Positions 6,961 through 34,714 of a stretch of DNA of 64,000 nt are shown in pieces. Each line of letters starts with the position of its first letter. Position 1 is the first letter of the stretch. The DNA is from Bacteroidales bacterium (GTDB taxonomy: Bacteria > Bacteroidota > Bacteroidia > Bacteroidales > JAQUTK01), in NCBI GenBank assembly GCA_028709785.1, contig JAQUTK010000021.1:610-64609 (forward strand), in the 5' to 3' direction. A program made the translations under genes and the position numbers. The notes under the pieces were generated by a model, which saw only the letters and a list, made by a program, of their open reading frames with translations, made no database searches and was not told where the DNA came from.

Positions 6961-9296
6961 ATGAAGAGATTACTTATACTGCTTTTTCCCCTTTTCACTC
7001 TTCATTCCGTCTTTTCCCAAGTGGTGATAACAGGAACAGTAGAGCAATAGAAAACAACAAAGAGATTCCATTGGAATTTGCTTCAGTGAGAGTCTATAAT
7101 AAACTAGACACGACCAAAGTCGTTTCAGGTACTTATACCGCAAATAATGGTACGTTTACAATTAATGTGATGAAAGGAGAGTATCGGCTTCTGTTCACCT
7201 CATTAGGATATAAAGCAAAGTCTCTGGATCTGGATTTAACGTATTGGAACGAAGAAGTATATCCTGTTGACCCCCTCGTTTTAGAAGAAGATAAGCGCTT
7301 GTTAGCGGATATTTTTGTCGATGCCAGGCGAATGGAACAAAATATTGATAAGCTGGATATTACCTTTTCCGACGAACAAAAGGCATCTGCGAAAGAAGCT
7401 AGGGACCTGATGCTTTCTATTCCGCATTTGCTGATTGATAAGATCTCCAATACATTAGCCAGTTCAGACGGGAAGCCCGTTCTTATATTGATAAACGGCA
7501 TCCGTTCAAACGATAGTGAGTTGAAATTAATTCCCGCCAATAAAGTGAAAAGGGTAGAGTACTATGATATTCCACCCATCCGCTACGGTGTATCCGGAAG
7601 TGTAATCAATATCACCACAGAGAATTTGGATTCAGGGTGGGCCGGAGACTTTTATCTGACAGCAACCCAATTTTATTCAATGTTCACGCCTTATGTATCG
7701 TTCATCAACGGGAGGCACAAATTTACGCTCGGGTCAGATCTGCTGGTGAATCCCAAACGAAGCGTCAAAGATCATTACGAAGGAAAATATACCTACTCGC
7801 TTCGGGGTAAAGATCATGAGTATGGATATCAAAGGGAGGAGCAGAACTGGGGCAATAACGGGAATTTTTCTATGGCATATACCAACTACAAAGAGAATAA
7901 ATATGTTTTTCAGGCAAAAGCAGTGATAGGCTTTTTAGCCGATAATTACGATGAAACCAGAAATGTGACATATACCGTTGATACCATTCAGGATACCAAA
8001 AAGGGGGTGTTGACAAACAGGAATAAGTCGTTTTTCCCTTCCCTTGATTTATATTATTCGAGAAAATTCAGTGAAAGCCGGGAGTTGAATCTGAATCTCG
8101 TTTCGGCCATTTTTACCAACCAGCAGGATCTTTTTTCTGAAGAAAAAGGTTTATATCCCTTCAAGGATGCCATGAATAATGACAATCAGAAGAAAACGAC
8201 CATTGGAGAGATCAATTATGTGACAAACATCGGAAAAAACAATTTCTCGTTCGGCTATCGGACAAATATCTCCTCCGCTGATAATACGATAAGCAATATT
8301 TTAACCGGAGAAAAGGATTTAACGGATAAGATATACCTTCAGGAGCATTATCTCTATGGAGAAACGTCTGGCAACCTGAACAAAATCTCTTACCGTGTAA
8401 GTTTGGGAGGTAAACTAAACACAACGGAAACATCCGGCACTAGCTTCAATCAAAAGCAATTTACGCCGGTTCTCATCTTGGGCTATCCGCTCAATATGCG
8501 CAATTATATCCGTCTACACTATCAATCATCCACAGGAGTACCTCAGATTCAACAATTATCCGGCAATTCAATTATGGTGCTCAACAACATTGTACGAAAA
8601 GGTAACCCGGATTTAAAAAGTAGCCAGAGTCATGAAATCAAGTTGTATCATACCTATTCAGGGAAAATCATTAACACAAAGATTGCTTTGTATTTCGAGA
8701 AAGACAATAATTACATCTTTGACTATTACCAGCAAGAGGTGATCAACAATCAGAACTATATCACACTTTCCAACGTCAATGCCGTTAAAAACCAGCGTTA
8801 TGGCATCGAGTCAAACCTCTCCTTAAAACCAATAAAGGGACTCAGAGTGGGATGCAATTTCAAAGCATACAAACAGACGTTTCAGCCGACTGCAACTTCC
8901 GCGGAAATATCAAAATACTTTTATCCGGTTACCCTCTATGCATCCTATCAATATAAGAACCTCTCTTTTGACTATTATCAAAAGTTGAGCAGCAGCTTTC
9001 TTGATGGAATCAATGTTAGTGGGATTGAAAAGGTTTCCTACCTAAGTGCCGGATATTCCTACAAGGATTGGATTGTTCAGCTGACTTACTATTTCCCCTT
9101 TGTGAAGAACACTTTCCGAAGTTATACGATAGTTGATAGTATGGTCAGCAGCTATTACCAGGGATGGCTTAAAAGCAAAGAGAAAACCTTCGGGCTCTCT
9201 GTTTCCTGGAGATTCAGCACGTCAAGAAAGGAATATAATGCAGATAAAAATATCTCCAACGAAGTGGATGATAAAGGTACTTTTGATGTAAAATGA
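6961..9296 (+). pseudogene. Outer-membrane beta-barrel protein (CarboxypepD_reg N-terminus plus TonB-receptor-like barrel), disrupted by a frameshift near 7040-7050
   Basis: ATG 6961 encodes the signal peptide MKRLLILLFPLFTLHSVFSQVVITGTVEQ and then TAG at 7048. The 741-aa ORF continues in another frame (open from 6933) with ...IENNKEIPLEFASVRVYN, which is the expected continuation of a carboxypeptidase-regulatory-like domain. The ORF-track start is a TTG with no signal peptide. Confidence 0.6.
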
Positions 9297-9354
9297 TCGT
9301 TAGGTATGAATTAATCAAAAAAACGCGATTAATTCATACTTAACGATCATTTTC
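9295..9354 (+). terminator. Long hairpin terminator between convergent genes
   Basis: 22-nt arms GATCGTTAGGTATGAATTAATC / GATTAATTCATACTTAACGATC with 1 mismatch and an 11-nt loop, then ATTTT. It overlaps the TGA stop. Confidence 0.65.
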
Positions 9355-9383
9355 CGACGAGTAATCGACTTTTAGATTTTGCG

Positions 9384-9416
9384 AAGAAGCTCCCACCGGG
9401 AGGGTGGGAGCTTCTT
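9384..9416. terminator. Second GC-rich hairpin in the convergent intergenic region
   Basis: AAGAAGCTCCCACC / GGTGGGAGCTTCTT arms, located 12 nt beyond the esterase stop. Confidence 0.5.
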
Positions 9417-9427
9417 GTTTAGCGGTG

Positions 9428-10579
9428 TTACTTGAATAGCATGGGAGCAAATTCAGACAGATAGATACGCCAGTTTTTCCAGAGATGACCCTCTTCCGAC
9501 TCGTAATAGATATATTTATATCCCTTTTCGTCCAGCAGTTTGCGATACGCTTCGTTTCCTTTGTACAGGAAATCGGTTTTGCCGATTGCGATATAGTACA
9601 GTTTCGGGTTTTTCGCAAACTGAGTTTTCAGTTTGGCCTCAGAATCCTGATAAACCGGCGAATCATTTTCTCTTCCCGATAGGATAGCCGCAGAAAATAA
9701 CCCCACGTAATCAAATAGATCCGGATACTCTTTGGAGATGTGATAGGAGTGGAAGCCACCCATCGACAAGCCCGCGATGGCACGTCCCGATTTTGCCTTT
9801 ATGGTGCGGTAATTGCTGTCGATGAAATTGACGATATCCGGAAAACTCTTTTCCATCGAACCTTCCATCGTCTTGGGAAGTTGTGAGGTCGGCTTGTAAT
9901 AACCCAATGAAGACTCACCCGGAGCAGCTTCCTGCGCTACATTTCCGTTTGGCATGACCACAATCATCGGTTTGGCTTTGCCCTGAGCGATCAGGTTGTC
10001 CAGGATCTGAGCCGCGCGACCCAGTGTAATCCATCCTTCTTCATCATTACCCATTCCATGCAGCAGATACAGCACCGGATAACGCTTTTTGCTCGATTCA
10101 TATCCGGCAGGCGTATAGATCGTCATCCGACGGGCCATTTTCAGCGTCGGACTCTCATACCATCTACGGCTTACCGTGCCGTGAGCAACCTTATTTATTT
10201 TGTACAGATCCGCACGATCTCCGCCAATCAAAAACACGTTAAACACGTTTGCCACATCCCGAATCAAATAGACATTATTGGGATCATTCATTTTTAACCC
10301 ATCGACCAGAAAAGAGTAGTTGTACAGTTCCGGTTTCAACGGAGCCGGTGTCTTGAATTCCCAGATACCATCACTCCCTTTGGTCAAATCAGAAGGCCCC
10401 TGTGTCGTCAGAAAATCGCCGGTAATCTGAACCTTCGTGGCATTGGGCGCATTCAGCCGAAAAGTAACCGTATTGTCGGGATTGATCTCCGGCGAGATGA
10501 TCTCTTTTGCACGCCCTTGCTGAGCAAAAGAGAGAAGCGAAAGCTGTAAAAGAACAGCGAGAAGAAATAACTTTTTCAT
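9428..10579 (-). CDS. Secreted esterase (alpha/beta hydrolase of the putative-esterase family) with an N-terminal E-set/CBM48-like domain
   Basis: Signal peptide, N-terminal Ig-like segment (TVTFRLNAPNATKVQITGDF), YLLHG motif and GLSMGG nucleophile elbow. Confidence 0.8.
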   Translation of the reverse strand: MKKLFLLAVLLQLSLLSFAQQGRAKEIISPEINPDNTVTFRLNAPNATKVQITGDFLTTQGPSDLTKGSDGIWEFKTPAPLKPELYNYSFLVDGLKMNDPNNVYLIRDVANVFNVFLIGGDRADLYKINKVAHGTVSRRWYESPTLKMARRMTIYTPAGYESSKKRYPVLYLLHGMGNDEEGWITLGRAAQILDNLIAQGKAKPMIVVMPNGNVAQEAAPGESSLGYYKPTSQLPKTMEGSMEKSFPDIVNFIDSNYRTIKAKSGRAIAGLSMGGFHSYHISKEYPDLFDYVGLFSAAILSGRENDSPVYQDSEAKLKTQFAKNPKLYYIAIGKTDFLYKGNEAYRKLLDEKGYKYIYYESEEGHLWKNWRIYLSEFAPMLFK

Positions 10580-24791: not shown

Positions 24792-26627
24792 TCAAAACGG
24801 CACCTCTCTTTCCTCGTCTTCCTCAAAGGCGATCGCCTGCACTTTGGCGGTGGCATCTATCATGCCCTCTTTCTTTTTAAACCAGTTGCTGTTGTCAAAG
24901 AGCGAGGAGCGGAACTTGCCCAGATGATCCATCGTCTCCGTTTCGTAGGGCGTGTAGCGACCGTTGACCGTGTTGAAGATGAACTGCACCTTGCCTTTTT
25001 TGCCGAGGTTTTTCGTCTTTACCTTCAGGATGTGAATCGTCGTGAGGTCGTTATTCTCGTCCCTTGACACCGCCAGACCAAAGTCCGCTTTGTTGTAAAA
25101 GTGCGACGAACCGTAGATGTCGTACATCTTGAGCTGTTTCGACTTGGACTTCGAATCATCGTCCTGTTTGGTAGGGTGGGCGACCAGTATGATCAGTATC
25201 CGATGCTTCTCGGCATACTTGGTGAGCTTGTCGAGAAACTGATTGATGTAGCTCGTCTCCCTTTCAAACTTGCCCAGACGATGTTCTACGCAGTTGTACG
25301 GGTCGATGACCAGTGCCTTGATACCGTTTCGGCGGATCAGATCGGTCGCTTTGTTCAGGATCGACTCGATGGTAAAATCCTCTTTGGGGATGATGGTAAA
25401 GATATTCTCGTCCAGAAACCGGACCGACTCCTCGTACTCCTCCTCCGTGGTAATACCCTGTTCGAGCTTCTTGCCGATCATCTTCTCCGAGATCTTGCAG
25501 TACGCCTCTTCGATCGGCATGTTTTCCGGACTGAAATAGGCCGTTCTCCAGTCGTGATTCATATACATGTTCGTCACCAGCATATCCACAAACTCCGACT
25601 TACCCGCTGTCGGTTCGCCGGTCACCACGCACAGTTTGCCCAACACGAAACGGAGGTAATTATCCAGGTTCGCAAACCCGGTGGAGAGTCCCGTCGTCAC
25701 CCCTTTTTCATAGATCAGGCGGTAGTTGTCGATGACATCACAGACCGAAAAGACCCCTTCGAGCGGGAGCATCTGCGGCAACTTGAGATAGATACGCAGA
25801 CTCTCCGCGCCATATTTTACCAGATGATCATTGGCATCTTTGCAGCCCTCGCCAAACTTCACGATACGGCAGACGCTCCGTCCAAAACGGCGAACCAGTT
25901 CGTCGCACAAAATCATCCCTTTCCGGTCGTTGTCCACGGCGATGTAGATAATCTCTTTGTTTTCAAAATGCGACTCGACAAACGGATCCAGCCAGCTAAG
26001 ATTCGTGTTTGCCCCGTTGGGCACGCTGATCACCGACGGGAAACCCGCCGCGATGACACTCATTGCATCCGGTTCACCCTCAACGACATAGACATAGTTT
26101 GGCTCTTTTGCACTGTCAATGTTGTAAGGCACCTGTTCGGCACCCGCCTCCATGGCAAAATGTTTTTCCAGGTCGCGATACTTCGTGTTGACCAGTTCGC
26201 CGTCCACAAAATAGTTGAACCCGATGCACTTCACTTTTTTCTTGACGTCGGGCAGGTACCGCTCCACTTCGGTCACTTTCAGATCGATCAGCACCTTTTG
26301 CGGGATGCACCGTTTCTCCACAAAATATTTCACCAGTTCGTCGCTCAGTTTCGTCTTGTTGGTGTCAAACACCGGACGCCTGAAGTGGGAGGCAACCCCT
26401 TTCGATTCCCTCTTTTCCGACTTCTCCAGCTCTTCGCCCGGCGTGGTCAGATGCCCCCCTTCCGTGCAGTGATAGCAATACGCATACTTGCTTTTCTTGT
26501 TGACTTTCAGGGTTTTCAGATGTTGATGATCCGGTCTGCGTTGCGGTCCGCAGAGCGGACAAGCCATCAGTTCGGTATCTCTGGTCGTCTTTGTTTCCAG
26601 TACATGCCCTTTAAAATAGTAAATCAT
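24792..26627 (-). CDS. Bifunctional primase-helicase (zinc finger, Toprim and DnaB/RecA-like ATPase; T7 gp4-like architecture)
   Basis: CPLCGP...CYHC zinc ribbon. Toprim VVEGEPDAMS ... IAVDNDRKG. Walker A TGEPTAGKSEF and Walker B-like ILIILVAHPTKQ. Confidence 0.8.
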   Translation of the reverse strand: MIYYFKGHVLETKTTRDTELMACPLCGPQRRPDHQHLKTLKVNKKSKYAYCYHCTEGGHLTTPGEELEKSEKRESKGVASHFRRPVFDTNKTKLSDELVKYFVEKRCIPQKVLIDLKVTEVERYLPDVKKKVKCIGFNYFVDGELVNTKYRDLEKHFAMEAGAEQVPYNIDSAKEPNYVYVVEGEPDAMSVIAAGFPSVISVPNGANTNLSWLDPFVESHFENKEIIYIAVDNDRKGMILCDELVRRFGRSVCRIVKFGEGCKDANDHLVKYGAESLRIYLKLPQMLPLEGVFSVCDVIDNYRLIYEKGVTTGLSTGFANLDNYLRFVLGKLCVVTGEPTAGKSEFVDMLVTNMYMNHDWRTAYFSPENMPIEEAYCKISEKMIGKKLEQGITTEEEYEESVRFLDENIFTIIPKEDFTIESILNKATDLIRRNGIKALVIDPYNCVEHRLGKFERETSYINQFLDKLTKYAEKHRILIILVAHPTKQDDDSKSKSKQLKMYDIYGSSHFYNKADFGLAVSRDENNDLTTIHILKVKTKNLGKKGKVQFIFNTVNGRYTPYETETMDHLGKFRSSLFDNSNWFKKKEGMIDATAKVQAIAFEEDEEREVPF

Positions 26628-26643
26628 TTGTTCCTTTTTTAGG

Positions 26644-27672
26644 TTAGTTTTTCCACTTTTTTTGTTTCACATTCCACACCGCATTCGCATTCGGTCGGGG
26701 TGGTGCTTCATCCGGAATCGGAAAGCCGAAATAACTTCGTTTTCCTGTCGCGCTATCTACCTCTTCAAAGGGATTTTTGATTTCCATTAGCACCAACTCA
26801 TGAAGCCTGGCAGCAAACAGTTGATGCGTTTTCATGCCCGGTTGCATCATGTTAGCGAAGTAATTCTTGGCTTGCCTTTCGCTCCGTATCGTTGATTCAT
26901 TTCCCTGTGTTATGACGTGTTCTTTGAATAAACGTTTTACTATGAAGGGATTATCTCTGAATTCTTCACCCAGATGCGATCGCATGCCCACCAATTCGAA
27001 CCATTCCTGACTTTTGAACGCCTGTTCCACACATTTCTCCCAGTCCATCACCGGTTGCAGCGGCTCATAGCCCCACGGATCATTGATTTTTGAAAAATCA
27101 ACTACTACTGCTTCTCCTGCGGAGCAATCTTTTTTTTCCAGTTCAGGAGAGGAAGAAGATTTAGAAGAAGAAGTAGAAATTTCTTTATTTTCGTTTTCTA
27201 AATTCTTCTCTTCTTTCCTCTCCTCTGGTATGGTTTGCTCTGGTATGGTCTCCTCTGGTATGGTGTGTTTTTCGAAAACAGTTATTTCGTTGTTATCATG
27301 AATGTTATCATTTTCTTTTAACGTATTTGAACACGTTTTTCGAGCCTGCTTCTTCATTCTTTGAGCTCTCTTCTCTTCAATTTCCTCCACTCTTTTATTC
27401 AATCCTTTCGAATAAAACGTGTCACCTTCAATCACAAAGAGGTCAAAATCGGTCACCATCTTTAGGAGAAATGATTCAGGAATCTTAAGAGAACGGGCAA
27501 GCATTCGAAGCTGATCGAAAGTTCCCAAGTTATTTTCCAGCTCAAAAAGAAACTCAACGAGCAGCCAATACAGTCCGTACAATGTAGCCCCGTTTTTGTG
27601 GAGAAGTAACTTACTCAGTTTAGAATCTCTCATTGCATCCCCGTCATGTTTAAAATACAAATCGCTTTTCAT
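26644..27672 (-). CDS. DUF4373 (Lin1244/Lin1753-like N-terminal domain) protein, replisome-organizer-like
   Basis: N-terminus YFKHDGDAMRDSKLSKLLLHKNGATLYGLYWLLVEFL matches my recollection of DUF4373. Acidic/Ser-rich linker contains a 15-bp x3 tandem repeat. Confidence 0.65.
   Translation of the reverse strand: MKSDLYFKHDGDAMRDSKLSKLLLHKNGATLYGLYWLLVEFLFELENNLGTFDQLRMLARSLKIPESFLLKMVTDFDLFVIEGDTFYSKGLNKRVEEIEEKRAQRMKKQARKTCSNTLKENDNIHDNNEITVFEKHTIPEETIPEQTIPEERKEEKNLENENKEISTSSSKSSSSPELEKKDCSAGEAVVVDFSKINDPWGYEPLQPVMDWEKCVEQAFKSQEWFELVGMRSHLGEEFRDNPFIVKRLFKEHVITQGNESTIRSERQAKNYFANMMQPGMKTHQLFAARLHELVLMEIKNPFEEVDSATGKRSYFGFPIPDEAPPRPNANAVWNVKQKKWKN
27223..27267 (-). repeat. In-frame 15-bp tandem repeat x3 inside the DUF4373 gene
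   Basis: CTCTGGTATGGTTTG / CTCTGGTATGGTCTC / CTCTGGTATGGTGTG on the + strand encodes (H/E/Q)TIPE x3 on the - strand. Confidence 0.85.
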
Positions 27673-27697
27673 GTTTCAGTCTTATCTTTATTAGTAA

Positions 27698-28288
27698 CTA
27701 CAAAAAATAGAACACATTATTTCCAAGTCCGTGGCGGAAGATTTTCCCCTCTGAAACCCAACGGTTGAGATCTTTGATGGCAGCAGACTTATGCAATCCG
27801 GTGATTCGCTGATAATCCATCCGCGTCATAAACGGTGTCTTGTTGAGAAACGTCAGAGCCACTTGCAACCGCTGCTCATCCGTGAGCGACGGAGCTGTAC
27901 ACTCCTTACTCTTCACCAGACGCATCGTCGAAAGTTTTCTCTTCATGGATCGGCTGGCTCTGAACTTTACGCGGCTGAATTGGGTCATTAGTCCCTTCTG
28001 ATCCTTTTCCGGCTCACCCTTCTTGCGCTCCAGTCCCACGGAAAAGATGCCGAGCCCTTCCAGTTCGACCGATTCACCCTGGCTCAGATGCCGTGCCAAA
28101 CCCTCCGCGATTGTCGTCAACATACCCATCACATCCCCTTTGGTAAAAGAAGAAGCATCCGCAATCTCCTCCGCCAGTTTGTCAATAGGAATCATCCCCC
28201 CATGGACGATTCGCGCATACTCTTTCGGTACCTCTCCATTCTCCCTGTTAGCAACAGGAGATTTAAACAACTCATATTTTACACTCAT
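27698..28288 (-). CDS. HU-like DNA-binding protein with a C-terminal extension
   Basis: IDKLAEEIADASSFTKGDVMGMLTTIAEGLARHLSQGESVELEGLGIFSV resembles the HU/IHF fold signature of Bacteroidales HU-like proteins. Confidence 0.7.
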   Translation of the reverse strand: MSVKYELFKSPVANRENGEVPKEYARIVHGGMIPIDKLAEEIADASSFTKGDVMGMLTTIAEGLARHLSQGESVELEGLGIFSVGLERKKGEPEKDQKGLMTQFSRVKFRASRSMKRKLSTMRLVKSKECTAPSLTDEQRLQVALTFLNKTPFMTRMDYQRITGLHKSAAIKDLNRWVSEGKIFRHGLGNNVFYFL

Positions 28289-28812: not shown

Positions 28813-29841
28813 ATGAAAGAAGAACAGAATCCTGTCGAAAGAGTCCAAACGACTAAAACAACACCAGAAAAAGAAAATGTAGCTCCACGCAAGAATACGA
28901 ACCCCGACACGAAAGCCAGTTTCAGTGAGCAATTTTGGGAAAATCATATTCACGTATTTATTTATCATTGGAATGAAATTGCCAAACTGACTGATCCGGA
29001 GTACAAAAAAAGTGAGATCAATTCGCTCTCCGGTTATTCACGGCTTGTCAATGGAAAGAATGTGACAACACAGGTCATAGTTGAAGGCATTCATGATCTG
29101 ATACTCCGTACTAATTGTTCCATGCATTTCGATGAATCCACACAGTTTGCCATGGATTGTATTGAAAATGGTCTGGAATTCGGACTTGTACAGATGAAAA
29201 ACGGAGCCGCAGTCGCGGGAGCAAAAATAATACCCTTTTTCACCCATAACAGGGGTTATAAAGCTCTCACTAGTTCAGAGAAAGAGAAGATAAAACGTTA
29301 CACTCCGCAGATAATATATAAGAAATGCCCGTTGGCGAACGAAGAAATTATTGTTGGAAAGTTTACATGTAATTGCAACCCCGGAGGTTTAACGCTTCAT
29401 CTGATCGGAACCACCCGCGAGATCAACGGTGAAATGATACTGCCTGACAGTTATCAATACGAGAATTGTCAATATCAGATTACTGCCATTGCAGGTCAAG
29501 CCTTTCAACAGACAAAGATAACCTCTGTCTTCCTATCCAAATATGTGGTTCATATCGGAACGAGGGCCTTTGCAAAATGCAGGAATCTTCAATCTGCAGT
29601 GATCACCAAGAAAGTATCGGAGATAGGGAAAGAAGCCTTTCTTCACTGCCCATTGAAGATGATTTACTCACTCAACCCAAAACCACCTAAGATGATTGGC
29701 AACACTTTTGGCAACCTGGATTATGACAATTGCATACTGGTCATACCCGAAAAATCCTTTGAAGCCTATGCAAGTGCAAAAGAGTGGGAGAAGTTTAAAA
29801 TAGTAAGGCCTCTCACAAAAAAGATCTCATTGAAGTTATGA
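28813..29841 (+). CDS. Protein with a C-terminal BspA-type LRR_5 module and no signal peptide
   Basis: C-terminal ...ITAIAGQAFQQTKITSVFLSKYVVHIGTRAFAKCRNLQSAVITKKVSEIGKEAFLHC... and tail FEAYASAKEWEKFKIV, like the other LRR genes. Confidence 0.6.
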   Translation: MKEEQNPVERVQTTKTTPEKENVAPRKNTNPDTKASFSEQFWENHIHVFIYHWNEIAKLTDPEYKKSEINSLSGYSRLVNGKNVTTQVIVEGIHDLILRTNCSMHFDESTQFAMDCIENGLEFGLVQMKNGAAVAGAKIIPFFTHNRGYKALTSSEKEKIKRYTPQIIYKKCPLANEEIIVGKFTCNCNPGGLTLHLIGTTREINGEMILPDSYQYENCQYQITAIAGQAFQQTKITSVFLSKYVVHIGTRAFAKCRNLQSAVITKKVSEIGKEAFLHCPLKMIYSLNPKPPKMIGNTFGNLDYDNCILVIPEKSFEAYASAKEWEKFKIVRPLTKKISLKL

Positions 29842-29947
29842 AATAGAAGTGTAGTTCGGCAATAAACCGGTAATTGATTCCGATACTCGGAAAAAAATAG
29901 TATCTTTGAAGAGTATAAAATTTGAAACTAGTTTTTCATGATTATGG

Positions 29948-29987
29948 AATGCGCCTGTCTGTGAGGATGGGCGCATTTTGCTTTTTT
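29948..29987 (+). terminator. Rho-independent terminator
   Basis: AATGCGCC / GGCGCATT stem, 13-nt loop, followed by TTGCTTTTTT. Confidence 0.7.
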
Positions 29988-30136
29988 ATGTGCCAATACC
30001 CATTGCTACTAAAGATTAAGAAAAAACATAGGCGTGGTTGAGAAATAAAACTAAAAAAAACAAATATCACAAATAAATAACTACTTTTACCTCGAGGAGA
30101 AGATCTGCTTTTCAATTAGAATTTACACAATAGATT

Positions 30137-32053
30137 ATGATTAAAAACGAAAAAGTAATACAAGGTTCACTTTTCGAAGAAGATTATCTTATTCGAACAT
30201 TAGGTAATATTGGAAGTTCACCAGAAACGGCCTTGACCGAAATTGTAGCAAATGCATGGGATGCAGGTGCTACCAATGTTGATATTTTTATTCCTGATGA
30301 AAAAGGGCAGAAACTAACAATCACCGATAATGGAATTGGCTTGACAAAAGAGGAGTTTTATTCAAGGTGGATGAAACTTGGATATAATAGATTAAAACAT
30401 CAAGGTAAAAAGGTTGAATTTCCCAAAGGGGTTGATTTACAAAGATTCGCATATGGTCGAAATGGGGTTGGGAGACATGGAATGCTTTGTTTTAATAATG
30501 AATATGAAGTTATTACAAATAAGGAAGGTGTGGAATCACGATTTACAATTTCAACAAAAAGTGAAAAAGAACCATTTCTAATAAAGAAGGAGACTTTTAT
30601 GAAATCTACGAAGTCTGGTACAAGATTAGAAGTAGTAGTAATAAAAAACTTACCAAGAGCAGATCTAATTCTTGAAATTATTTCCGCAAGGTTTTTACAT
30701 GACCCTAAATTTATTATTTCAATAAATAAGCGAACAATTCAATTAGAGCAACATAAAGGGCTTATCGATTCCTGCGAAATAAAAGAAGGGGATTTTATAT
30801 TGAATGTTCATCTTATTGATTCAAAAAAATCTCGGAAGTCGACCCTATATCAAGGAATTGCAATCTGGCAAGGTGGGAGATTAGTTGGTGAACCATCATG
30901 GATTATAGGTAAACATATGGTCTTAGATGGTCGCTCAAAACAAGCAAAAAGATATTCTGTCGTGGTTCAAACAGATGATTTTGCTGATTATATAACAGAA
31001 GACTGGACTGGTTTTAAAAAGAGAAGAGAACTTGATTCTGTTTTCGACAGAATCAATGAATGTGTTCAGGCAATGTTTTCAAAGGTAGCTCAAGATAATA
31101 TAGAAGAGACTACAGCTCAAATAAAAAAAGAATATAGTAAAGAATATGAGGAATTAAGTCCACTTGCAAAGTATGAGTTTAATGAAGCCATTCAAAAGAT
31201 CTCTATTTTTAATCCAACAGCTAGACAAGAATCAATATCATTAGCTATTGAAACAGTGATTCAACTCGAAAAAACACGAAGTGGAAGTCTATTACTACAA
31301 AAAATATCCGCGTTATCTCATGAAGATGTACAAGGATTAAACAAATTATTGGAGAATTGGACTGTAAAAGATGCATTGACCGTTCTTGATGAAATAGATA
31401 AACGAATTTCTGTAATTGAAGCAATTCGTAAATTATCAAATGATTCAAATGTTGATGAGTTGCATGTTTTACATCCTTTAGTTGCGAGCGCTCGTTGGAT
31501 TTTTGGACCTGAATTTGACTCACCCGAGTATTCTTCAAATAGTCAATTGCAGACAACTGTTGAAAAAGTATTTGGGAAAAAAATAATCAAAGGAGTCTTT
31601 AACAATAACAAAAAAAGACCTGATATTGTCGTAATGGGTAACTCTGTTTTTTCTGTTACTTCTACTATTGCATTTGATAGTGAGACAGGCTTATCTACGC
31701 TAAATAAGATTCTTATAATTGAATTGAAAAGAGGTGGTTTTAAACTTGGTCGTGAAGAGAGAAATCAAGCCGTTGGATATGTAGAGGATTTTATGAATTG
31801 TGGTACAATAATCGGCAATCCTTACATTAATGCTTTTATTGTTGGTGAGTCATTTAGTGAGAAAACTCAACCAATACAAATAATTGAAAATAAGAATAGA
31901 GTTGAAATGGGAAAAGTACAGATATGTTTGTTTTCACAACTAGTTGATTCTTCTGAGCGGCGATTATTTAATTTACGAAGTAGATTAAATGATCGATATG
32001 CAGATGTTCCTGGAATTGAATTATTCGAGAAAAACAGGAAATTAGCAATGTAA
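30137..32053 (+). CDS. GHKL (Bergerat-fold, MORC/HATPase_c_3-like) ATPase fused to a C-terminal PD-(D/E)xK nuclease-like domain
   Basis: N box EIVANAWDAGA, G1 box ITDNGIGL, G2 box GRNGVGRHG. C-terminus: RPDIVV ... ILIIELKRG ... NQAVGY (D, ExK and QxxxY motifs). Confidence 0.75.
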   Translation: MIKNEKVIQGSLFEEDYLIRTLGNIGSSPETALTEIVANAWDAGATNVDIFIPDEKGQKLTITDNGIGLTKEEFYSRWMKLGYNRLKHQGKKVEFPKGVDLQRFAYGRNGVGRHGMLCFNNEYEVITNKEGVESRFTISTKSEKEPFLIKKETFMKSTKSGTRLEVVVIKNLPRADLILEIISARFLHDPKFIISINKRTIQLEQHKGLIDSCEIKEGDFILNVHLIDSKKSRKSTLYQGIAIWQGGRLVGEPSWIIGKHMVLDGRSKQAKRYSVVVQTDDFADYITEDWTGFKKRRELDSVFDRINECVQAMFSKVAQDNIEETTAQIKKEYSKEYEELSPLAKYEFNEAIQKISIFNPTARQESISLAIETVIQLEKTRSGSLLLQKISALSHEDVQGLNKLLENWTVKDALTVLDEIDKRISVIEAIRKLSNDSNVDELHVLHPLVASARWIFGPEFDSPEYSSNSQLQTTVEKVFGKKIIKGVFNNNKKRPDIVVMGNSVFSVTSTIAFDSETGLSTLNKILIIELKRGGFKLGREERNQAVGYVEDFMNCGTIIGNPYINAFIVGESFSEKTQPIQIIENKNRVEMGKVQICLFSQLVDSSERRLFNLRSRLNDRYADVPGIELFEKNRKLAM

Positions 32054-32115
32054 AAGTACTAACGATTAACAATCGATATCGCAAATACAGGCTTCAGAGG
32101 TTTGCAAAGATTTTT

Positions 32116-32502
32116 ATGAGTTTCAGAATTTCTCTCAACTTGATAATGAATCACTCGCAATCCCTTTCAGACAAGACCTCCAAACTTATAAGAATTCCCT
32201 CAATAACCGAGAACTTGAACATGATGAGCATTATTAAAAAACTTTTTGGCTGTTCGGAGAAAGCAGACAATGACTCAGGAAAGAAAAGGACTGAAATTGA
32301 TCAGCTGATTAACTCTGAGAATCTAAATAACAGCATAATCGAATTAGACAACTATATCTCTGCACTTTGTGAATATGGTCATTCCATTGAACGATTAAGT
32401 GTGCCACAAAAGAATTTCTATTTCAATCAGAATTAAGAAAAAGAGTTTAAGAATGGTGGTTATATTCAGTTCTATTATAAACAAAATATTTTAAAGCTAT
32501 GA
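32116..32502 (+). pseudogene. DUF4375 (DMP19 C-terminal)-like ORF interrupted by an in-frame TAA and truncated at its 3-prime end
   Basis: ...SVPQKNFYFNQN-TAA-EKEFKNGGYIQFYYKQN resembles the DUF4375 core ...FYxxxxLExEVNNGGFxQFFxNS as I recall it. Reading through the TAA at 32434-32436, the frame ends in an ATGA overlap with the next gene (32499-32502). Confidence 0.4.
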
Positions 32503-34379
32503 TTAATCTTCCTCTTCAGATTTCAGTGCCTCAAATCTGGCAAGGTACTTTTGATAAGAACCAATGGAATTCAATAAATTTTATTGTTGGAGCCAACGGT
32601 ACTGGAAAGTCATTATTCTCGAATAGTCTTAAAGATCAATTGCAAAACAAAGGACTAACTGTTCGACTACTTACTGCTGAAAGGCTAGCTGGTTTTGAAA
32701 AATCGAGTTATAGCTCTTTTTCATCTAGCTATTTTGATAGAGGGTTAGATATTTCAAATTTTAAATCATGCAAACAACTTGGTGAGCAATTTGGTTTGTC
32801 AACTTCTGCATTTATAATTTTGCAAGAAAGATTAGATTTAAGGATAAAAATAGAATCCTTGCTCTCCGATTTATTTAAAAAAACAATCAGATTAGTTGAA
32901 GAAGGTGGATATTTGAAACCCAAAATGCAAAGCCTTACAGGAGGAGACGAATATGGGCTAAAAGAACAGGAATGTCATGGCTTGAAAGAGATTATTTCTC
33001 TACTTACCTTTTTGTATGACGAAAAAAACAACTGTATTATCTTCGATGAACCGGAATTACATTTACACCCTCAGTTTCAATCATTTTTTCTGGATGAGAT
33101 AAGAAAATTAGCTGGTAATCCATTTGATGATCCGTCGAAGAAAATGTTCTTTATAATAACTCACTCACCATATTTCTTGGATTTCAGGAGTATTGATGAT
33201 TTGAAAAATGTGATTGTTTGTCATAATAACGAAAAACCGACTTTTATTGAAGAGGGAAGTATAGATGCTCAGGATGAGTATATATTAAGAAAGTTTTTGC
33301 CAAGATTCAACACTCACCATAAGCAATTCTTTTTTTCTCCAAACCCTGTGTTTGTTGAAGGTTATACAGACCAACAAATCATTACTTTATTATTTGAAAA
33401 ATATGAAATGAAGATTTCCGCTTCCGGATCTTCTGTCATTGATGTTGGTGGAAAAGACGAACTTGCCGTATTTTATAGATTGTGCAAAAAACTAAAAATT
33501 GAAGCCCGGTTAGTAGCAGATTACGATGCTCTGTTTAGAGGGAAGTTGCGAGAGGTTTTTACTTCAGAAGAGAAAGTAGCCGATTATTTTACAACAAATG
33601 GTTATGGAGCTAATATTTCGAATACAATTGGCGAAATTGAAAGAAAACTTCTAAGTATCGCTGATAATCTGAATACTAAGAAATCTTCCGACTCAAATGT
33701 TCAGAAATTGATAGATTATTTAAAACCTTTGTATGTAAATAAACAGGACAACCTCGATAAAATTAGGGATGCTGTTTATTTAGCAGTTTATAGATTTAAG
33801 GTACAGATAAAAGATTGTGTTGATGGATGTTTGAATTCAGATGTTGAATATATTGTTAGCGGGTCTTTTGCATTAACAGAGGCTATAAAGCGAGCAAATA
33901 TCTTTATTATTCCTCAAGGCGAATTAGAACATTTTTTCATTAAGAGCACTATTGATTATCTCAATATAACTAACAAGGACAAATTGTTTCATGATGAGAA
34001 AGATTTTATATTATCGCTAGACAATAAGCAAGAAATTGAAAATAATTATTCGGACTTAATAAGGATTCTTAAAGAATCAGTTCCTCATATTGTCGTTAAT
34101 ACAAAAAAACATTTAAAGTATACACTTGTTGAGTGGATACAAAAGGTTCAAAATGCGATTTCAAGAAAAGAAGTAAAGACGTTGGATCAACTTAAAACGA
34201 ATGCAAGAATACAATACTCTATTTATAGCCAGATTCTTGAATGCGCTGATGATGGTCTTGTTGTCAATGAGAATGATACTTTTAGTTGCACAGTGAAAAT
34301 TAAATTAACACTAATCGGAGAAGAAAAGATTGTACATTTTGATCATACAACTACTCCACAGAACTTTATATTTGAATAA
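32499..34379 (+). CDS. OLD-family-like protein: ABC/AAA_21-type ATPase fused to a Toprim nuclease domain
   Basis: Walker A GANGTGKS, Walker B IIFDEPELHLHP, H-loop ITHSPYF. Toprim Glu in VFVEGYTDQ, GGKDE, and DxD in VADYDALF. Confidence 0.8.
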   Translation: MINLPLQISVPQIWQGTFDKNQWNSINFIVGANGTGKSLFSNSLKDQLQNKGLTVRLLTAERLAGFEKSSYSSFSSSYFDRGLDISNFKSCKQLGEQFGLSTSAFIILQERLDLRIKIESLLSDLFKKTIRLVEEGGYLKPKMQSLTGGDEYGLKEQECHGLKEIISLLTFLYDEKNNCIIFDEPELHLHPQFQSFFLDEIRKLAGNPFDDPSKKMFFIITHSPYFLDFRSIDDLKNVIVCHNNEKPTFIEEGSIDAQDEYILRKFLPRFNTHHKQFFFSPNPVFVEGYTDQQIITLLFEKYEMKISASGSSVIDVGGKDELAVFYRLCKKLKIEARLVADYDALFRGKLREVFTSEEKVADYFTTNGYGANISNTIGEIERKLLSIADNLNTKKSSDSNVQKLIDYLKPLYVNKQDNLDKIRDAVYLAVYRFKVQIKDCVDGCLNSDVEYIVSGSFALTEAIKRANIFIIPQGELEHFFIKSTIDYLNITNKDKLFHDEKDFILSLDNKQEIENNYSDLIRILKESVPHIVVNTKKHLKYTLVEWIQKVQNAISRKEVKTLDQLKTNARIQYSIYSQILECADDGLVVNENDTFSCTVKIKLTLIGEEKIVHFDHTTTPQNFIFE

Positions 34380-34714
34380 TGTCATTTAGCGAACTCAATT
34401 CCGTCGAATATTATATGTTTCATGGGTATGATTATTCGTTGTTCCTGACCGGTACGGATCTTCAAAGAGCGAAAGCTATCACCGGTGCCACGAACTTTAT
34501 TTCTGCGGTGAACAAAGAGGAGCAGAAGCAGAGTTTTATCAAAGAGGCATACTTGTTGCACCAGTCGCTGACGCTTTGCAGTAGTTTGCTGGACACCAAT
34601 CAGCGGTACGAAGCGGCTTTCTTTGAGGCTGTTCGCACGCTTGTGGTTCGCGTGACGGGTACCGGTGCTTTTGATAGAAATGTAAAGGTTCAATCTAAGC
34701 ATGCATCGGAGTAA
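34379..34714 (+). pseudogene. hsdR: Relic of a type I restriction enzyme R subunit C-terminus (DUF3387-like)
   Basis: ...KEAYLLHQSLTLCSSLL...RYEAAFFEAVRTLVVRV resembles the HsdR C-terminal domain. Only 111 codons remain. GC rises abruptly at its 5-prime edge. Confidence 0.5.

Follow-up and report, generated by a model that had tools for sequence, protein, structure and literature searches.

Organization of the gene and its product

The stretch analysed here, referred to below as the window, comprises 64,000 nucleotides (nt) of contig JAQUTK010000021.1 from a Bacteroidales bacterium (assembly GCA_028709785.1), and all coordinates are positions within it. At 30137..32053 on the forward strand lies an intact open reading frame (ORF) of 638 amino acids (aa), whose product appears to unite a GHKL ATPase with a C-terminal PD-(D/E)xK nuclease and is a candidate single-protein anti-phage system. 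Using the window protein as query, a word-indexed search of 5.8 billion sequences matched more than 3000 proteins; the top 120 of these are 73–98 % identical to it and 636–688 aa long, nearly all falling at 637–638 aa, the usual length of the family. When 1.84 billion cluster representatives were searched exhaustively, 289 clusters were recovered at E < 1e-30, and their full-length relatives reached as low as ~28 % identity. Conservation was assessed in an alignment of 55 diverse homologues (26–54 % identity to the window protein), to which statements about invariant residues refer. The features of the gene and its product are listed below, where + denotes the forward strand and VcSduA is an experimentally studied GHKL-type Shedu protein that is considered further on.

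30137..32053, +: complete gene for the GHKL ATPase–nuclease fusion protein (ORF list; more than 3000 same-length homologues; dN/dS ~0.06)
30137..30706, +: GHKL (Bergerat-fold) ATPase domain, aa ~1–190, including a conserved N-terminal strap (HATPase_c_3, PDB sequence and fold matches)
30239..30271, +: GHKL motif I (N box), EIVANAWDAGA, aa 35–45 (E35, N39 and D42 invariant)
30320..30343, +: GHKL motif II (G1 box), ITDNGIGL, aa 62–69 (D64, G66 and G68 invariant; the block aligned to VcSduA begins here)
30455..30481, +: GHKL motif III (G2 box, end of the ATP lid), GRNGVGRHG, aa 107–115 (G107, G110 and G112 invariant)
30614..30634, +: GHKL motif IV, SGTRLEV, aa 160–166 (G161 invariant, T162 in at least 90 %)
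30707..31024, +: beta-rich middle (transducer/S5-like) domain, aa ~191–296, ~105 residues (modelled strands E193–E279; within the block aligned to VcSduA)
31025..31333, +: helical linker, aa ~297–399 (modelled helices H297–H390; lower conservation; inside the hhalign block with VcSduA)
31334..32050, +: putative C-terminal PD-(D/E)xK nuclease domain with leading helices, aa ~400–638 (AlphaFold2 model, EndoMS/NucS matches, hhalign, NF050001)
31457..31459, +: predicted nuclease motif I glutamate, E441, in DELH (invariant; on model helix aa 441–451; faces a conserved E..H of VcSduA)
31616..31624, +: predicted nuclease motif II, RPD, aa 494–496, with D496 (R494 and D496 invariant; aligned to KEPD, D505, of VcSduA)
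31721..31729, +: predicted nuclease motif III, E529-L-K531 (K531 invariant, E529 in at least 90 %; K531 aligned to VcSduA K535)
31766..31780, +: predicted nuclease motif IV, QAVGY, aa 544–548, a RecB-type QxxxY (Y548 invariant, Q544 in at least 90 %; aligned to VcSduA QALGY)

On the ATPase side, the residues E35, N39, D42, D64, G66, G68, G107, G110, G112 and G161 are invariant, as are E441, R494, D496, K531 and Y548 on the nuclease side, whilst at least 90 % of the homologues retain T162, E529 and Q544; conservation on this scale lies well beyond what chance would produce. Measured against relatives with 82–87 % protein identity, the ratio of non-synonymous to synonymous substitution rates (dN/dS) is ~0.06; purifying selection acts on the gene. 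Among GTDB species representatives, a relative was detected in at least 519, drawn from Bacteroidota, Pseudomonadota, Bacillota, Acidobacteriota, Desulfobacterota, Planctomycetota and other taxa. The subfamily to which the window protein belongs is large and separate from the VcSduA family, and carries only the database label 'ATP-binding protein'.

A prior model-made description of this DNA, hereafter the sequence-only reading, had proposed that one polypeptide combines a GHKL ATPase with a RecB/Shedu-type PD-(D/E)xK nuclease, and this central proposal is borne out by the Pfam and PDB matches, the predicted folds, the invariant residues and the profile homology to VcSduA. All of the motifs that it quoted were found in the ORF, namely EIVANAWDAGA, ITDNGIGL, GRNGVGRHG, RPDIVV (aa 494–499) and ILIIELKRGGFKLGREERNQAVGYVEDF (aa 525–552). 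Two details required correction: the spacer between RPDIVV and ILIIELK, given as 35 residues, is 25 residues long, and the supposed single helical middle region of ~250 residues resolves in our models into a beta-rich part at aa ~191–296 and helices that run from aa ~297 into the nuclease domain. Its implication of novelty was also overstated, as fused forms of this kind were described in 2008 as paraMORC3 (Iyer, Abhiman and Aravind; PMC2292703), catalogued in 2023 as Shedu type 1D (Gu et al., preprint) and tested in 2025 in the shape of VcSduA (Adams, Blokesch and co-workers, Nat Microbiol; PMC12137116).

The N-terminal half

The Pfam model HATPase_c_3 matched aa 28–142 of the window protein (E 7e-19; 68.6 bits against a cut-off of 25), and matched all 55 family members. 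The motifs follow the GHKL order, with ExxxNxxD at aa 35–42 (I), DxGxG at aa 64–68 (II), GxxGxG at aa 107–112 (III) and GT at aa 161–162 (IV); within motif I, E35 is presumed to be the catalytic base and N39 the Mg2+ ligand. When compared with PDB sequences, the N-terminal part matched the N-termini of PMS2 and MutL as well as ATPase domains of the Hsp90 family.

A full-length AlphaFold2 model was built from a shallow alignment (36 sequences, ≥73 % identity) and had a mean predicted local distance difference test (pLDDT) score of 56.7, with values <50 at the C-terminus; as such, only its N-terminal half was used, where pLDDT is mostly 70–85 across the GHKL and middle domains. Foldseek aligned 300–470 columns of this half to the GHKL-plus-middle modules of TRAP1/Hsp90, MORC2, MORC3, MORC4 and MutL LN40, with E-values of 1e-13 to 1e-10. 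The ATP lid (aa 79–119) was modelled at pLDDT <50, whilst its sequence is conserved at F74, W78, Y83, R85 and R103; the lid may be intact, judging by this sequence conservation. The label 'MORC-like' used in the sequence-only reading holds loosely, in the sense of the paraMORC proteins, whereas specific kinship with MORC does not, as Hsp90, MutL and MORC match about equally. True MORC membership is not claimed here because the fold matches to Hsp90 and MutL are equally good, and it was dropped as a candidate.

Both the best PDB profile matches and the top fold matches were to the Hsp90 family (endoplasmin, HtpG and TRAP1), and Gu et al. (2023) raise protein sensing for GHKL-type Shedu N-terminal domains. 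The GHKL module might accordingly respond to a protein signal, such as misfolded or phage proteins, much as an Hsp90 chaperone does, and activate the nuclease allosterically with no DNA clamp involved. MutL and MORC, however, match nearly as well as Hsp90, and all of the related GHKL–nuclease pairings that have been described (MutL, topoisomerases, and paraMORCs in restriction–modification operons) act on DNA (PMC2292703), such that we regard a protein-sensing role as very improbable.

The C-terminal half and its homology to VcSduA

A second AlphaFold2 model, confined to aa 395–638 and built from the diverse alignment, reached a pLDDT of 81.4 and a predicted template modelling score (pTM) of 0.77. 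In it, leading helices precede a beta-sheet core on which D496 and E529/K531 are located, whilst Q544 and Y548 lie on a helix. When this model was compared with the PDB using Foldseek, the top matches were to EndoMS/NucS (5gkj_B, E 0.027, probability 0.75; 2vld_B, probability 0.80), with other PD-(D/E)xK nucleases (HamA, Can2, McrC, Mus81 and DdmD) lower in the list. The highest query-normalised TM-score, 0.35, was obtained with E. coli SduA (8ps4_A) at E 0.42, and in a viral fold library an Mrr-domain protein matched with a probability of 0.90. The ranking of these structural matches is suggestive only.

Sequence profiles likewise appear to agree on a nuclease at superfamily level only. A Pfam scan of 30 C-terminal domains gave sub-threshold matches to HSDR_N_2 (7/30), SduA_C (2/30, E 0.015), PDDEXK_3 (1/30) and VRR_NUC (1/30), together with single matches to unrelated families, and a profile of the C-terminal domain found no PDB sequence at E ≤ 10. 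The PADLOC SduA model (PDLC00401) matched aa 414–460 of the window protein at E 0.0047 and 11 of the 55 members at E ≤ 0.01 (best 2e-4), but none of 30 members of the VcSduA family. Indeed, no sequence model in Pfam, PADLOC 2.0, NCBIfam or the PDB matched the VcSduA family at the thresholds used, and standard annotation pipelines would therefore miss it; if anything, the window family is the more recognisable of the two.

VcSduA provides the functional point of reference. It is reported to protect against T1-like coliphages and vibriophage X29; protection is non-abortive and is lost on mutation of either the ATPase (E27A) or the nuclease (K557A), and in the proposed model the GHKL domain controls the nuclease inside an entwined, clamp-like dimer (PMC12137116). 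As the preprint table of VcSduA hits holds the first ~400 residues of each sequence, full-length VcSduA and its family were recovered by a database search with the fragment. Aligned with hhalign, the two family profiles matched collinearly along 495 columns, beginning at GHKL motif II and reaching the C-terminus, with a probability of 92.6 % and an E-value of 4.4e-7. Each half was also found separately, the N-terminal half at 89.4 % (E 2e-6) and the C-terminal domain at 91.7 % (E 7.6e-7). Within this alignment RPD496 is paired with EPD505, ELK531 with EIK535 and QAVGY548 with QALGY557. K531 thereby faces VcSduA K535, which is K557 in the numbering of the paper and the residue whose mutation to alanine abolishes defence (PMC12137116). 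Judged by these profile comparisons, the window protein and VcSduA are remote, collinear homologues.

Genomic setting and mobility

The features surrounding the gene are as follows.

29945..29990, +: terminator-like hairpin (29945..29980) with a T-run, closing the BspA-like gene upstream and forming the left boundary of the cassette (terminator scan)
29949..32476, no strand assigned: mobile cassette carrying the gene (blastn against the relative locus L087)
32116..32436, +: ORF of 106 aa, representing the N-terminal half of a DMP19-like gene (PF14300, DNA-mimic family) whose intact counterpart in L087 encodes 200 aa (96 aa aligned, 84 % identical)
32499..34379, +: gene for an OLD-family ABC-ATPase with a TOPRIM nuclease (Pfam AAA_15 and OLD-like_TOPRIM; PADLOC GajA/Old models)
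34379..34714, +: ORF of 111 aa that covers the C-terminal region only of a type I restriction R subunit (T1RH-like_C, E 9e-13) and overlaps the OLD stop codon by one base

The gene has a G+C content of 0.327, compared with ~0.44 in both flanks. Its closest relative, with 98 % protein identity, resides at locus L087, where positions 7813..10339 are 96.8 % identical by blastn to 29949..32476 of the window. The backbone that L087 shares with the left side of the window (methyltransferase, NMO, primase-helicase, DUF7833 and HU-HIG genes) is only 75–87 % identical at the nucleotide level, a pattern that indicates recent exchange of the cassette alone between the two elements. Homology to L087 stops at 32476, 23 bp short of the OLD-family gene, and the DMP19-like ORF at 32116..32436 is broken off at this same point. 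The genes that follow in L087 are of DMP19-like, HigB-like and HTH-peptidase type, with no OLD gene among them. As the DMP19-like gene is cut off where the L087 homology ends, the OLD gene and the HsdR fragment that follows it were presumably inserted later; this fragment (34379..34714), 2.3 kb downstream of the GHKL gene, looks like the remnant of a type I restriction–modification (R–M) locus.

These neighbours bear on whether the GHKL gene and the OLD-family gene form a two-gene system, comparable with Gabija- or PARIS-like pairs. The two genes share a strand and a low G+C content (0.319 for the OLD gene), and the terminator scan found no terminator-like site between them. Nevertheless, in L087 other genes stand in place of the OLD gene, the nucleotide homology ends just before it with the intervening ORF being the cut-off DMP19-like gene, and OLD/AAA_21-type neighbours account for only 4 of 125 directly flanking ORFs in the census described below. 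No GajB/UvrD-type helicase adjoins the OLD-family gene. Such a pairing is exceedingly improbable, and the OLD-family gene was rejected as a partner since the arrangement is missing in L087 and rare among 80 loci.

For the neighbour census, 80 loci were taken from the genomes of species representatives, and all ORFs within 4 kb of the gene were clustered. Each neighbour family was confined to at most 6 of the 80 loci, and in a Pfam census of the 125 directly flanking ORFs every family accounted for 5 at most. Recurrent neighbours are typical island cargo, comprising type I, IIG and III R–M genes, RhuM, PIN, Fic and AbiEii-type ATPases. In roughly one-tenth of the loci a methyltransferase stands immediately beside the gene, but its kind varies, each family being found in at most 4 of the 125 ORFs, and none adjoins the gene in the window. 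In the contexts of five close homologues there was no neighbour in common, and one of these genes lies between GH97 glycosidase and inositol-phosphatase genes. The gene is thus a self-contained, single-gene cassette without a conserved methyltransferase partner.

Two further observations concern the surroundings of the family. To the left of the cassette in the window is a replication/mobile-element module (24792..28288, reverse strand), comprising a Toprim_2 plus DnaB_C primase-helicase (24792..26627), a DUF7833 protein (26644..27672) and an HU-HIG DNA-binding protein (27698..28288), after which comes a BspA-type leucine-rich-repeat protein (28813..29841, forward strand). In a metagenome-assembled genome from Prolixibacteraceae, the homologue is located downstream of an integrase in a run of short same-strand ORFs that includes a VCH_CASS14 integron-cassette family protein; this arrangement looks like an integron-like cassette array.

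The primase-helicase, DUF7833 and HU-HIG genes of the surrounding mobile-element region, along with the sequence matches to MutL and PMS2 N-termini, could point to a service in DNA repair or to the element itself, such as MutL-like nicking or the exclusion of competing plasmids and elements, rather than to phage defence. In addition, 'distinct functions independent of RM systems' were raised for the stand-alone paraMORC3 genes (Iyer, Abhiman and Aravind 2008; PMC2292703). Against this, the distribution is patchy and horizontally mobile with exchange at the level of the cassette, the neighbours (toxin–antitoxin, R–M, PIN, Fic and AbiEii-type genes) are typical of defence islands and not of core repair, and the homologue VcSduA is a demonstrated anti-phage protein (PMC12137116). 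We therefore hold a repair or element-serving role to be quite unlikely.

Relationship to type II restriction enzymes

Among named models, the best for the window protein is NCBIfam NF050001 (BbrUII/HgiDII, 659 positions). Residues 26–206 match positions 18–208 of this model (E 1e-23, 83.6 bits) and, with a query starting at aa 300 (nt 31034–32050), aa ~303–609 match positions 339–637 (E 3e-8, 32.6 bits). Furthermore, PADLOC REase_II models match 52 of the 55 family members, approximately one in ten related loci lies directly beside type I, IIG or III methylases, and the window contains the HsdR fragment noted above. The protein might on these grounds be a strict restriction endonuclease related to R.HgiDII and R.BbrUII, either sequence-specific and protected by an unlinked methyltransferase, or modification-dependent (type IV) and so able to do without one. 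However, its whole-protein score against NF050001 is 110.2 bits where the cut-off is 550, and it is for this reason a distant relative, rather than a member, of the BbrUII/HgiDII family. The flanking methyltransferases are few and differ in kind, and some loci are found among housekeeping genes. Moreover, GTCGAC, which we take to be the HgiDII/BbrUII site, is not avoided in the window, where 4 copies were found against 7.8 ± 3 expected, one of them inside the gene itself. VcSduA, for its part, acts on T1-like phages in E. coli, and the available portion of that paper mentions no requirement for a cognate methyltransferase or DNA modification (PMC12137116). As such, we consider a strict restriction endonuclease unlikely. 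A classical type II role is likewise unlikely because no methyltransferase is conserved; with GTCGAC not avoided either, a classical type II R–M system was rejected as an explanation, although a type IV-like specificity that depends on modification is conceivable.

The family relationship is also informative in the opposite direction. GHKL N-terminal domains have been reported in several type II restriction enzyme families, including that of R.HgiDII, whose C-terminal domain was left unassigned to a fold (Orlowski and Bujnicki 2008). The match to NF050001 positions 339–637 suggests that this C-terminal domain is a PD-(D/E)xK domain of the type present in the window protein.

Proposed function

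We think it likely that the window gene specifies a stand-alone, single-protein anti-phage nuclease of paraMORC3/Shedu type 1D architecture, for which neither a methyltransferase nor a partner gene is needed. In favour of this are the composition of GHKL ATPase and nuclease, the catalytic residues, the purifying selection, the mobility of the cassette in defence and R–M islands, and the homology to VcSduA. Anti-phage activity of the window subfamily is something that we infer by analogy, and an ATP-driven clamp that gates the nuclease would be in keeping with GHKL enzymology and with the VcSduA results.

A mechanism may be envisaged along these lines. The protein would form a homo-oligomer, at least a dimer, in which the N-terminal GHKL domains shut on ATP binding, as they do in MutL, MORC, Hsp90 and topoisomerase VI-B, and the GHKL domain, middle domain and helical arms would make up a clamp that captures invading DNA. 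An ATP-dependent conformational change would then license the paired PD-(D/E)xK sites (E441, D496, E529, K531 and Q544/Y548) to cut the DNA. The nuclease would be inactive without its trigger, and hydrolysis of ATP would reset the enzyme.

A number of observations weigh against an anti-phage nuclease of this kind. Fold comparison, which for the N-terminal half gave matches to TRAP1, MORC and MutL, found the C-terminal domain only weakly EndoMS-like, and in the PDB and viral libraries Foldseek returned no nuclease fold at E ≤ 1e-3. In the full-length AlphaFold2 model, neither the ATP lid nor the relative arrangement of the domains was confidently placed. Pfam SduA_C (PF14082) was matched neither by the window protein nor by any of the 55 full-length members, although this missed threshold is weak evidence against kinship with Shedu because the validated VcSduA matches no such model either. 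BLASTP detected no similarity between the window protein and VcSduA, and the motifs of the window family were found in 0 of the 543 published VcSduA hits, on which basis the two families are treated as separate. Experimental validation belongs to VcSduA only, and not to the window subfamily. Finally, since the best named sequence model represents a type II restriction enzyme family, restriction-type specificity is possible.

More tentatively, and with a probability that we would place well short of even, the subfamily may be an evolutionary and mechanistic bridge between sequence-specific, methylase-protected type II enzymes, represented by R.HgiDII and R.BbrUII, and the methylase-free Shedu-type immune nucleases. 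If this were true, the same chassis of GHKL clamp and PD-(D/E)xK nuclease would distinguish self from non-self by reading the state of DNA (ends, topology or replication intermediates) in an ATP-dependent manner, and not its methylation, and a fold would be assigned to the C-terminal domain of R.HgiDII.

These relationships matter for annotation, as the subfamily is present in at least 519 species representatives whilst its nuclease half escapes the standard models for defence systems and domains, and a PDB sequence search detected no solved structure of a GHKL–nuclease fusion. Linking the subfamily to VcSduA and paraMORC3 would allow defence islands to be annotated better, particularly those of Bacteroidota in gut and environmental microbiomes. 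Alongside VcSduA, it would also supply another family, and one that is easier to recognise, for work on ATP-driven clamp control of an immune nuclease. It does not constitute a new category, as the architecture, the prediction of function and the first validation have already been published.

Comparison with known systems

The N-terminal half shares its ATPase motifs and two-domain fold with MutL, MORC and Hsp90. The window protein differs from these in having no MutL C-terminal endonuclease/dimerisation domain, no MORC coiled-coil or CW domain and no Hsp90 C-terminal domain; where these proteins carry C-terminal parts of their own, it bears a fused PD-(D/E)xK nuclease. With the BbrUII/HgiDII enzymes it has in common a similar length (659 positions in the model), an N-terminal GHKL domain and collinearity of both halves. 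Those enzymes, however, are members of sequence-specific R–M pairs, whereas the window gene is without a cognate methyltransferase.

A closer counterpart is found in paraMORC3, defined as a GHKL domain, an S5 domain and a C-terminal RecB-like domain with E-D-ExK, which is prevalent in proteobacteria and bacteroidetes, and whose nuclease-bearing members are stand-alone genes without conserved neighbours and with a function that was predicted only (Iyer, Abhiman and Aravind 2008; PMC2292703). Judged against this published definition, the window protein agrees in its conserved GHKL motifs, middle domain, E441-D496-E529xK531 residues, stand-alone and laterally mobile gene, and matching taxa.

Canonical Shedu proteins (SduA, DUF4263/SduA_C) are likewise single-gene defence nucleases with PD-(D/E)xK motifs I–IV (E, D, ExK and Q) and a variable N-terminal regulatory domain. 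Among their ~8000 Shedu homologues, Gu et al. (2023) list proteins with HATPase_c_3 and a linked middle domain (N24) under the enzymatic N-terminal domains, a class termed type 1D in their Discussion. EndoMS is the closest structural homologue of the Shedu nuclease according to those authors, and it also heads the weak PDB fold matches of the window C-terminal domain. Motifs I–IV of B. cereus Shedu (E204, D249, E264/K266 and Q295; Gu et al. 2023) have as counterparts E441, D496, E529/K531 and Q544 in the window protein, although the spacing differs, at 33 against 15 residues from D to E and 13 against 29 from K to Q. Further differences from canonical Shedu are the absence of a match to SduA_C and the weak structural resemblance to E. 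coli SduA (E 0.42, TM-score 0.35). As the regulatory module is an ATPase, control of the window protein is probably nucleotide-driven, and not a matter of end-sensing or octamer assembly.

It is with VcSduA that the likeness extends over the entire protein. The two families are not seen alike by existing models, the window family being detected by HATPase_c_3 and weakly by the SduA models, and VcSduA by no Pfam, PADLOC, NCBIfam or PDB sequence model. The spacing of the nuclease motifs is similar but not identical, at E-55-D-33-ExK-13-QxxxY in the window protein and E-58-D-28-ExK-18-QxxxY in VcSduA. Both, nevertheless, are single-gene systems, and in both a single polypeptide of ~640–670 aa carries the same modules in the same order: GHKL domain, middle domain, helical region and predicted PD-(D/E)xK nuclease.

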